A DNA stretch of 64,000 nucleotides from Dehalococcoidia bacterium. GTDB lineage: Bacteria > Chloroflexota > Dehalococcoidia > SM23-28-2 > RBG-16-64-32. Location of the stretch: the NCBI GenBank assembly GCA_963667205.1, contig OY762959.1, forward strand, positions 1,875,601 to 1,939,600, in the 5' to 3' direction. The translations under genes were made by a program, and so were the position numbers. Shown here in pieces: positions 13,418 to 14,952 of this stretch (its first letter is position 1; each line of letters starts with the position of its first letter). The notes beneath the pieces are model-generated. The model was not told the DNA's origin, did not search any database, and saw only the letters and a program-made list of their open reading frames with translations.

Positions 13418-13657
13418 CTAGTCGCGGAAAGTAGTGGTTCCGCGGTGCGCCGTCGTATTTTCCGCTGGGCAGGCAGCAGCGCTTGAAAGCGGCGTCCTGA
13501 TCCGCAGGGACATAGGTCGTTCCGCCCGAGTTTCTCGCTCAGTTCCTTGTCGCCGTGTACCTCGCGGAATCCACGCTTGACTCTGCTCTCCGATGGGAAG
13601 CCCTTGCGGCGCTTGCTTGTGATCTCAAAATGAGTAGTCCTTGTATTCGTGCGTCAC
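13418..13657 (-). CDS. SEC-C zinc-finger protein (about 78 aa) split by three +1 frame breaks at UUU codons
   Basis: RBS AAGGAGGT then [13 protein letters not shown] | [47 protein letters not shown] | [19 protein letters not shown] | RD*; the SEC-C motif is complete only after the second shift. Confidence 0.8.
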
Positions 13658-13673
13658 GACGCACCTCCTTGTC

Positions 13674-14733
13674 TTAGCGACCACGCGCCTTCATCCGGGC
13701 GCGGTTGGTCTTGGCGATCTGCTTCCACTTCCTCTGCTCTTCAACGCGCAGCCGCTCGTCCTTTTTGCCGGCGATGAACGTTTGCTCTCTCCGCAGCTTG
13801 CGGTAGCTCTCCAGCCGCCGCCAGTCGAGCGTCCCCGCGTCGATCGCTGCCTGGACGGCGCAGTTCGGCTCCGAGCCGTGGCTGCAGTCGCGGAAGCCGC
13901 AGCCTTCCGCCAGCTCATCGACCTCCGCGAACGCCTGGCCCAGGCCTTCGCCGGCGTCCCACAGCTGCAGCTCGCGCAGCCCGGGCGTGTCGATGATCAC
14001 GGCCCCGCCGGGCAGGACGAGCATCTGCCGCACTGTCGTCGTGTGGCGGCCCTTATCGTCGGCGCGGACGCCCTTGACGTCCTGCTCCTCGCGTTCCAGC
14101 AGGCGGTTGATGATGCTCGTCTTTCCGACTCCGGACGAGCCGACGAAGACGGCTGTCTTCCCGCACGCCAGCGTCGACCGCAGCGCTTCGAGGCCTTCGC
14201 CGGAGGCGGCGCTCGTCGCGAAGACGCTGACGCCGGGCGCTATCGCTTCGACGTCGCGGAGGATCTGCCGGCGGTCGTCGCAGAGGTCGGCCTTGTTGAG
14301 GACGATGGCAGGCGTCGCGCCGCTCTCCCAGATCACCGCCAGATAGCGCTCCAGCCGTCGCAGGTTCAGCTCGCGGTTGAGCGAGGCGACGACGTAGACG
14401 AGGTCGACGTTGGCCGCCATGATCTGCTCGCCGGTGCGCTCGCCGGCGACCTTCCGGGAGAGCGTCGAGCGCCGCTGCAGCAGGCGCTCGCCGACGGCGC
14501 GGGACTCGCCAGGCAGGCGTCTCGCCAGCACCCAGTCACCAAACCGCCGGCAGGTCCGCGCGCCCTTCGGCTTCGTGCAGCATGCGCCCCGGTATGACGG
14601 CCTCGAAGGCGCCCGCGGCAGACCAGAGCACGTATGCGCCGCGTTGCTCTTCGGCGACGCGCATCGGCGTCAGGGTTTCGTCGGACTGTTGGTCGAAGAA
14701 CTGGCCCCAGCCAAGGTCTTCAAGTGAATACAA
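13674..14733 (-). CDS. rsgA: Small-subunit ribosome biogenesis GTPase RsgA with one +1 frame break
   Basis: NKAD, GSSGVGKT, GRHTTT, DTPG and C-terminal CGFRDCSHGSEPNC; the N-terminal part LEDLGW...LPAV joins GDWV only after an extra T at 14541-14543; RBS AAGGAG then TTG. Confidence 0.9.
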
Positions 14734-14822
14734 CGGATCGCTCCTTGTGTTTCGATGGTGATGATGCGTGCGTGCGCGCACGGTCGGATGGAGCGGGCCC
14801 GGACAGTGGTCGGAAGCAGGGG

Positions 14823-14888
14823 TCAGGCCGAGCGGCCGGTGACCGGAAGGATGGGCCCGCCGCGCGCGGCAACGAATGTGTATCTCAT
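14823..14888 (-). promoter_or_regulatory. Putative leader peptide MRYTFVAARGGPILPVTGRSA (attenuator) upstream of rsgA
   Basis: RBS AAAGGAGG; 21 codons; hairpin over the stop; GCGGGCCC (14860-14853) is complementary to GGGCCCGC (14800-14793). Confidence 0.6.
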
Positions 14889-14923
14889 ATTGTAAGGGCC
14901 CTCCTTTCGCGTTCTCGTGCCCG

Positions 14924-14952
14924 AGACTAACCGCCGCCGGCGACGCTGTCAA
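14924..14952 (-). promoter_or_regulatory. Sigma70-type promoter of the leader-rsgA-SEC-C operon
   Basis: TTGACA-N17-TAGTCT. Confidence 0.75.

Follow-up and report, generated by a model that had tools for sequence, protein, structure and literature searches.

On bacterial chromosomes, prfB and a few other genes are, to our knowledge, essentially the only cases of conserved +1 frameshifting. Shift-prone UUU-pyrimidine sites in E. coli were reportedly described by Schwartz and Curran in 1997 as low-level events in reporter constructs, and we know of no SecA-, YecA- or YchJ-type protein that requires frameshifting. According to two papers, the prfB site begins with AGGGGG, which a three-base gap separates from CTTT, TGA and then C (PMC5009743, PMC12421855); the latter treats the AGGGGG-type internal Shine-Dalgarno (SD) sequence three bases upstream as part of the motif (PMC12421855), and the former gives UUU_U as a variant in a minority of species (PMC5009743). 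Here, we analyzed a window of 64,000 nucleotides (the whole stretch of DNA under study, G000:C1:1875601-1939600, G000 being the genome that contains it), which belongs to a contig from an uncultured organism. Within positions 13418–14952 of this window, rsgA, a leader and a small gene encoding a SEC-C motif all lie on the minus strand. The evidence is probably best explained jointly by conserved +1 frameshifting of the small SEC-C gene at UUU-Y (Y, pyrimidine) and by a separate, species-specific mutation in rsgA.

According to the preliminary description of this locus, the coding strand has four runs of at least three T, all of them +1 breaks. A script count gave exactly this result for 13418–14952: the runs lie at 14543–14541, 13630–13627, 13488–13486 and 13430–13428, each is a +1 frame break, and the last three fall inside the small SEC-C gene (Table 1). 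When each in-frame TTT and the base after it were read as one step, the gene yielded a 77-residue product ending in RD-stop. This shift-corrected product matched the full SEC-C motif (PF02810, 38.5 bits, positions 1–19 of 19) with both cysteine pairs, and the unshifted middle piece matched positions 1–11 only (23.5 bits). Because the motif is complete only after the +1 step at site 2, membership in it depends on that shift. Site 1 has the slippery codon UUU_U, the other two sites have UUU_C, and the zero-frame codons in the A site are UGA, CAA and CCG, respectively. In G000, a zero-frame stop thus stands right behind the slippery codon only at site 1; in the family as a whole it does so at 73 of 108 sites. 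The sequence AAGGA occurs seven bases before site 1 in G000. TTT accounts for 8% of Phe codons genome-wide, compared with three of the five in the small SEC-C gene.

The T runs are present in the DNA. Contigs from four sequencing runs, one from each of four studies, span 13400–14800 with 0, 0, 2 and 3 substitutions and are identical to the window at all four T runs (depths 3–11; one run is possibly the window's own source). We therefore rejected assembly error at the T runs; the extra T in rsgA, whose absence from reads would have told against the preliminary description, is carried by all four contigs. Among the runs listed as carrying this DNA, none is recorded as RNA. Runs of three or more T occur in G000 at 2.04 per kb of coding strand (841 long open reading frames [ORFs]), which gives an expectation of about 2.7 in 1.3 kb. 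In the same 841 ORFs, TTT with C or T behind it was found in frame 493 times, indicating that TTT-pyrimidine is not generally a break in this genome and agreeing with the earlier statement that T runs in other genes stay in frame.

With the middle piece of the gene as query, a search of the order (65 genomes) turned up true homologs in five others (G005, G049, G015, G047 and G050); all other matches in the order were C-termini of SecA-sized frames. The five homologs, from separate assemblies, showed the same +1 breaks at the same positions. Site 1 reads TTT T GAG/GAA in G005, G049 and G050, TTT T AAG in G015 and CTT T GAC in G047, and site 2 reads TTT C AAG/AAC in all four homologs that reach it. 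Site 3 reads TTT C AGG GAC TGA in two homologs and TTT T CTG CAG TGA in G005; G050 has no such site and ends in frame with ...YYSRE. An extra site was seen in G015, which has CGC TTT C GAC where the others read TAC GAC. In four of the five homologs, as in G000, a ribosome-binding site (RBS) and start codon lie in the frame leading into the site 1 stop. In the core segment, G000 and G005 differ by 2, 8 and 29 bases at codon positions 1, 2 and 3, corresponding to 21 synonymous and 9 non-synonymous codon changes; the pattern is less distinct in the third segment (5, 2 and 9 by codon position), and the short N-terminal segment is uninformative. As a separate observation, the gene of G050 (locus L021) has an extra base near residue 32 at CGA GGG T TAC, not at TTT, and retains GGA TTT CCG in frame; this is one of only two skips that depart from the site rule given below.

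The family extends well beyond the order. Searching a protein collection with the shift-corrected product returned 1771 proteins at E<=0.001 among 1780 candidates, and many of the collection's ORFs end right after Phe (...GSGRSF, ...SGRF, ...NHYF) or continue out of frame. A scan with one genome per species gave at least 597 confirmed stretches, from which we took the best 80. These 80 loci and six order-level loci were aligned to the product at the DNA level, and 83 of the 86 aligned. The best 80 represent Planctomycetota, Verrucomicrobiota, Acidobacteriota, Gemmatimonadota, Desulfobacterota and cyanobacterial relatives, and the carriers among them include cultured Massilia, Marinicella and Acidobacteriaceae strains. 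On plasmids CP114562.1 and CP114554.1 (Candidatus Manganitrophus), a homolog without any annotated feature was matched only to residue 57, which is as far as shift site 2.

The shifts in these loci follow a simple rule. Beyond residue 8, 108 of 110 one-base skips fell on TTT (106) or CTT (2), the next base being T in 73 of them and C in 35, although the exact base skipped within a T run is indeterminable. The 73 skips with T place TGA, TAA or TAG in the zero frame directly behind the slippery codon; with C, the next zero-frame codon is mostly CGA, CAA or CAG. TTT TGA C/T was the commonest site (47 loci, with C in 77%). From residue 13 on, two shifts were called in 45 loci, one in 29, three in 1 and none in 8, so that 75 of 83 loci have at least one; three of the eight loci with none are truncated or otherwise broken. 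Shifts occurred at TTC in 0 of 129 cases and at TTT in 120 of 175, and where a site is read in frame, the codon there is TTC, TAC or TTT followed by a purine. Of 82 loci, 15 showed the +1 skip at site 2, 51 had a further site (GGC YGC TTT T GAY GG), and 48 had the site 3 pattern TTT-Y-Arg-Asp/Glu-stop. In six loci this ending is reached without a shift, and thirteen stop right behind the Phe of site 3, where the +1 frame holds a short tail starting with Arg.

The shifted frames encode conserved peptides (DGxxRxxYF and R-D/E-stop) that are in frame in other loci. Between two cultured Massilia species, the ten +1-frame codons after TTT TGA differ by six synonymous changes and one non-synonymous codon change. 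Judged by such codon changes, the shifted SEC-C frame is under purifying selection, and the conserved multi-site +1 shifts look like a built-in trait of a widespread gene family rather than damage. The claim of the preliminary description that the breaks are not random decay is thus upheld for the three SEC-C breaks, which are conserved across phyla with purifying selection on the shifted frame, and fails for the break in rsgA, which is a private mutation.

We read the SEC-C breaks as programmed +1 ribosomal frameshifting of the "shifty stop" kind described for prfB, with several sites per gene. Peptidyl-tRNA-Phe (anticodon GAA) in the P site would slip from UUU to the overlapping UUY while the A site fills slowly. 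Translation without the shifts would give a 10-residue peptide, a protein lacking the last two cysteines or a long run-on tail, and full-length SEC-C protein would be made only in proportion to slippage. Using ARAGORN, we identified 52 tRNA genes and one tmRNA gene in G000, including one normal tRNA-Phe(GAA). Quadruplet decoding by a special tRNA was rejected because none of the 52 tRNA genes has a four-base anticodon, and prfB-like frameshifting as a general habit of the organism was rejected because prfB of G000 is uninterrupted. The same search reported a tRNA-Lys-like gene at G000:C1:273880-273954 whose anticodon loop has six bases (CTTTTA) and whose acceptor stem is unpaired at the top; G000 also has two normal tRNA-Lys(TTT) genes at other positions.

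Table 1. Features of the rsgA and small SEC-C region and its flanking genes, in window positions.
Feature	Position	Strand	Details
Promoter-like hexamers	14924..14952	-	TTGACA (14952-14947), 17-nt spacer, TAGTCT (14929-14924); putative function
Leader	14823..14907	-	SD-like AAAGGAGG (14907-14900) and 21-codon upstream ORF (ATG 14888 to TGA 14823), within a predicted stem
rsgA, N-terminal piece	14536..14733	-	TTG start 14733-14731, 65 codons, stop TGA 14538-14536; aligns with N-termini of intact orthologs
rsgA, break	14541..14543	-	TTT run with one extra T: GCG GTT T GGT GAC, compared with GCG GTC GGC GAC in relatives
rsgA, remainder in +1 frame	13674..14540	-	GTPase and Zn-finger domains; PF03193, 168.2 bits; in-frame GTG at 14531
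RBS and start of small SEC-C gene	13655..13669	-	RBS AGGAGGTG, GTG start (13657-13655); RBS and start in the same frame also in G005, G015, G047 and G050
Small SEC-C gene, whole	13418..13657	-	78 codons including the start, three +1 steps
Shift site 1	13625..13630	-	TTT T GA (UUU UGA G); zero frame stops after 10 codons
Shift site 2	13483..13488	-	TTT C AAG; divides the zinc-binding motif, CPCGSGRRF / KRCC
Shift site 3	13418..13430	-	TTT C CGC GAC TAG; C-terminus ...HYF-RD-stop
Glyoxalase-like gene	12783..13412	+	Converges on the SEC-C gene; stop codons five bases apart
Calcineurin-like metallophosphoesterase gene	15013..15759	+	Divergent from the rsgA leader; its start is kept in congeners

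RsgA (YjeQ) is a 30S maturation GTPase. At the break in its gene, the zero frame runs ...CCG GCG GTT TGG TGA, so that the codons there are GUU and UGG and no UUU codon is present. Reading GTTT as one step gave ...LPAVGDWVLARRLPGE... (...LPAVGDWV...) and an open RsgA of 352 codons that scored 161.6 bits with TIGR00157 (cut-off 100); the part not interrupted by the break passed PF03193 far above its cut-off of 30. The preliminary description, in which rsgA was broken once and regained PAVGDWV on removal of one T, was correct on this point. We did not find a single uninterrupted rsgA frame including the N-terminal OB-fold in G000, where the stop comes after 65 codons; RsgA orthologs have open frames of 361–397 codons, with the exception of that in G003. 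RsgA was present in 11 of 41 related genomes, G000 included, and is thus patchy in the group. A second, intact rsgA had been raised as a possibility, but the sole RsgA over the Pfam cut-off in G000 is the broken copy. The only rsgA of G000 is therefore broken at the DNA level.

Comparison with congeners argues that this break is private. G002, G004, G005 and G007 read GCG GTC/ATC GGC GAC at the position, without the extra T, and G000 differs from its congeners there by two synonymous C-to-T changes and one inserted T. From the anticodons of the tRNA set of G000, the tRNAs reading GUU and UGG would re-pair poorly one base on. In the contig from run X9 (depth 6.4), one base is missing at 14048, within the rsgA codons of the KGRHTTT switch I region; this contig also has substitutions at 14032, 14340 and 14657. 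As assembled, the rsgA of G003 carries an independent one-base deletion (CTGCC-GCGATC), eight bases upstream of where G000 has its insertion. We read the break in G000 as a recent, species-specific inactivating or splitting mutation and not as a programmed site. The in-frame GTG in the remainder could start an RsgA product without half of the OB domain. The earlier proposal of a conserved or programmed break in rsgA found no support, since the break is absent from four congeners, does not fall on a UUU codon and is joined by a further one-base deletion in the variant contig; of the rsgA genes adjacent to SEC-C genes, those of G005, G049 and G050 are intact.

The minus strand carries, in order, the promoter-like hexamers, the SD-like sequence and upstream ORF, rsgA (TTG 14733), the RBS and GTG start, and the small SEC-C gene. 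Fourteen bases lead from the rsgA stop codon (13676–13674) to the RBS and GTG of the small SEC-C gene, which ends with TAG at 13420–13418. The 200 bases upstream of rsgA (window 14740–14952) are conserved in six congeners, including the hexamers, the SD, the upstream ORF and the predicted stem. TTGACA and TAGTCT/TAATCT were kept in all six aligned congeners, and an upstream ORF of 19–21 codons was present in 6 of 6. A scan for a sigma-70-type consensus gave no minus-strand match, as TTGACA-17-TAGTCT falls under the scan threshold. The intact promoter of the preliminary description thus gained no support from the consensus scan, whereas conservation of both hexamers and of the short upstream ORF in six congeners speaks in its favor. 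RNAalifold predicted pairing of CGAAAGGAGGGCCC with GGGCCCGTCCTTTCG, that is, of the SD with codons 12–16 of the upstream ORF, in a stem that would sequester the SD; its columns are nearly invariant, so this predicted structure is without covariation support. In a second leader hairpin, closer to rsgA, three pairs have changed on both sides among congeners. Searching Rfam with the leader and gene gave no family at E<=1 except two chance-level matches.

The genome itself is a single contig of 2.55 Mb with about 68% G+C, is 95.75% complete by marker genes and has uncultured Chloroflexota as its nearest named relatives. A gene with three breaks in 240 bases would ordinarily be taken for dead, and a single-contig assembly of an uncultured organism invites suspicion of sequencing or assembly errors. 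Nevertheless, a decaying or misassembled SEC-C gene is very improbable: the same sites recur in independent assemblies of five related genomes and in many phyla including cultured isolates, the shifted frames show third-position bias and synonymous change, the contigs from four studies agree at every T run, and identities of 60–80% among homologous loci exclude copies of one contaminant. Correction in the RNA, by RNA polymerase slippage or another loss of one U per T run followed by normal translation, is harder to dismiss but still unlikely. TTT-Y minus one U leaves UUY, which is still Phe, so that a missing U in the mRNA accounts for the pyrimidine at position 4 just as well as slippage on the ribosome does, and site 1 often lies in runs of T6–T7 in other phyla. 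Known transcriptional slippage, which is discussed in PMC5009743, uses longer homopolymers, however, and most sites have only three or four T; no long homopolymer was found in G000, where the runs consist of three, four, three and three T. In addition, the stop falls exactly in the A-site position at 73 of the 108 sites, as the ribosomal model predicts and the RNA model does not require, and hundreds of in-frame TTT-Y codons are kept in the long ORFs of G000.

The preliminary description proposed that all four T-run breaks, that of rsgA included, are programmed, so that faulty or drug-bound ribosomes slip and thereby produce a 30S quality-control operon of RsgA and a zinc-finger partner. Several observations fit this proposal: all four breaks are +1 at T runs, the rsgA stop is UGA followed by C directly at the break, the operon leader is conserved, and rsgA and the SEC-C gene are adjacent in G000, G005, G049 and G050. 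Nor does rsgA look decayed. Its ratio of non-synonymous to synonymous substitution rates (dN/dS) between G000 and congeners is 0.27–0.33 (0.15–0.32 among other congeners), showing no relaxed selection, and only two unique changes in G000 fall at otherwise invariant columns, which speaks against long decay. Two of six congeners, G000 and G003, are broken in rsgA within eight bases of each other, which is unexpected under random decay. On the other side, the insertion is missing in four congeners, the break in G003 is a deletion and would require the opposite shift, GUU-U and UGG-U would permit only poor re-pairing, the variant contig is frameshifted once more within the switch I codons, G005, G049 and G050 combine an intact rsgA with a frameshifted SEC-C gene, and the pairing was not found outside the order. 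On balance, we consider it improbable that all four breaks are programmed. The lack of relaxed selection on rsgA and the close spacing of the breaks in G000 and G003 also weigh against our own explanation, as do several features of the SEC-C sites. With three shifts in series, hardly any full-length protein would be made if any one of them were inefficient; at sites 2 and 3 of G000, the A site holds a sense codon and not a stop; and no prfB-like SD stimulator was seen, the logos of sites 2b and 3 showing only the GG of a conserved glycine codon. TTT-Y also occurs in frame inside family members (35 cases), and, together with the 493 cases in G000, this implies that UUU-Y alone is insufficient and that either context or low efficiency must play a part. 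Outside the order, site 1 has weaker support, as many homologs there have an ATG just after it. The shift calls come from a frameshift-aware dynamic-programming aligner of our own, and the sample comprises the 80 best loci out of at least 597. Many of these are mutually related, with Planctomycetota dominating, and related genomes are not independent. Frameshifting of the SEC-C gene with a separate mutation in rsgA nonetheless accounts best for the data as a whole.

To place the small SEC-C gene in its wider context, we compared its neighborhoods. By tblastn, rsgA lies upstream of the SEC-C gene only in this order (G000, G005, G049 and G050; 3 of 85 other loci), and a small SEC-C gene was found beside RsgA relatives elsewhere at 0 of 80 loci. 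The rsgA–SEC-C pair is accordingly limited to the order and is not the general operon that the preliminary description had envisaged. For other phyla, we scanned 129 flanking ORFs from 74 loci against Pfam. Among same-strand ORFs starting at most 500 bases downstream of the SEC-C gene, 19 of 39 have RNA-repair-type domains: RtcB (2), Ro60/TROVE (2), Thg1 (4), RNA ligase PF09414 (4), Hen1 (4), RlaP (1) and AAA_33 with or without HD, PNK-like (2). The loci with such a gene downstream are L046, L048, L066, L068, L069, L072, L077, L080, L082, L087, L089, L095, L096, L099, L100, L107, L109, L111 and L120. In G000, RtcB is encoded elsewhere in the genome.

This arrangement suggests that the SEC-C protein may act together with RNA repair, and that the frameshifts may make its production depend on how translation is proceeding. 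The frequent position of the SEC-C gene upstream of RNA-repair genes is compatible with a damage-sensing role, tied to RNA repair and not to RsgA. More specifically, the small SEC-C protein might be a sensor of translation state that acts with the downstream RNA-repair genes, and with RsgA in this order, a proposal that we regard as speculative and rather unlikely as it stands. Under it, full-length protein would build up only while ribosomes stall with the A site unoccupied, as they might when release factors, tRNAs or the decoding center are damaged, and its partners in many phyla would be RtcB, Hen1/Pnkp, Ro60, Thg1-like proteins, RNA ligase and RlaP. If so, the earlier idea of frameshift gating would be right in kind but attached to the repair of RNA or ribosome damage instead of to rsgA.

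We found no description of the SEC-C family as frameshifted in the literature; the supplementary cluster lists of Antonov 2013 (the GeneTack survey) and the Burroughs and Aravind 2016 survey of RNA-repair systems lay outside this search, and either could mention the family. Term look-up in the available text of the Atkins 2016 review, Antonov 2013 and a 2025 frameshifting preprint likewise gave no SEC-C case. As far as can be told, conserved +1 frameshifting at several sites of one small and widespread SEC-C gene is a new case of a known type of recoding. What would be new is a gene family of many phyla with one to four +1 sites in fewer than 80 codons, and a simple site rule of UUU followed by a pyrimidine that usually forms a stop. 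Such a family would be a natural model for programmed P-site slippage without an SD stimulator. There is also a practical side, as gene callers truncate or miss these proteins: collection ORFs end after the slippery Phe, and both plasmid copies lack annotation. The link to RNA-repair operons, in turn, offers an idea of how cells might sense damage to the translation machinery.

As a protein, the SEC-C product resembles the C-terminal metal-binding domain of SecA and the YecA and YchJ proteins in that its SEC-C stretch fits PF02810 in full. It resembles the C-termini of the YecA/YchJ-type NCBIfam models but scores below their cut-offs, and in a profile search no curated family reached its cut-off with it. 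Unlike these proteins, it is a basic protein that stands alone at about 78 residues, with its own conserved N-terminal part and the C-terminal tail DGxxRxxYFRD. AlphaFold2 run on an in-frame SEC-C homolog (43 sequences) gave a low mean predicted local distance difference test score of 57.8.

In its recoding, the gene most resembles prfB, with which it shares a slippery codon in a pyrimidine run (CUU_U in prfB) with a stop directly after it, often UGA followed by C, and site 1 of G047 is literally CTT TGA C. By contrast, the SEC-C sites have no AGGGGG-type element three bases upstream, their shift codon is UUU (Phe) and not CUU, and there are up to four sites per gene. Their stops also include UAA and UAG, and about a third of the sites have a sense codon (CGA, CAA or CAG) instead. 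Because the SEC-C product is not a release factor, the autoregulatory logic of prfB is not transferable to it. A further likeness is to the UUU-pyrimidine sites of E. coli, in which UUU in the P site is followed by C or U and tRNA-Phe slips rightward, a scheme that 106 of the 110 skips fit. The difference is that the SEC-C sites are conserved in a natural gene and needed for its protein.

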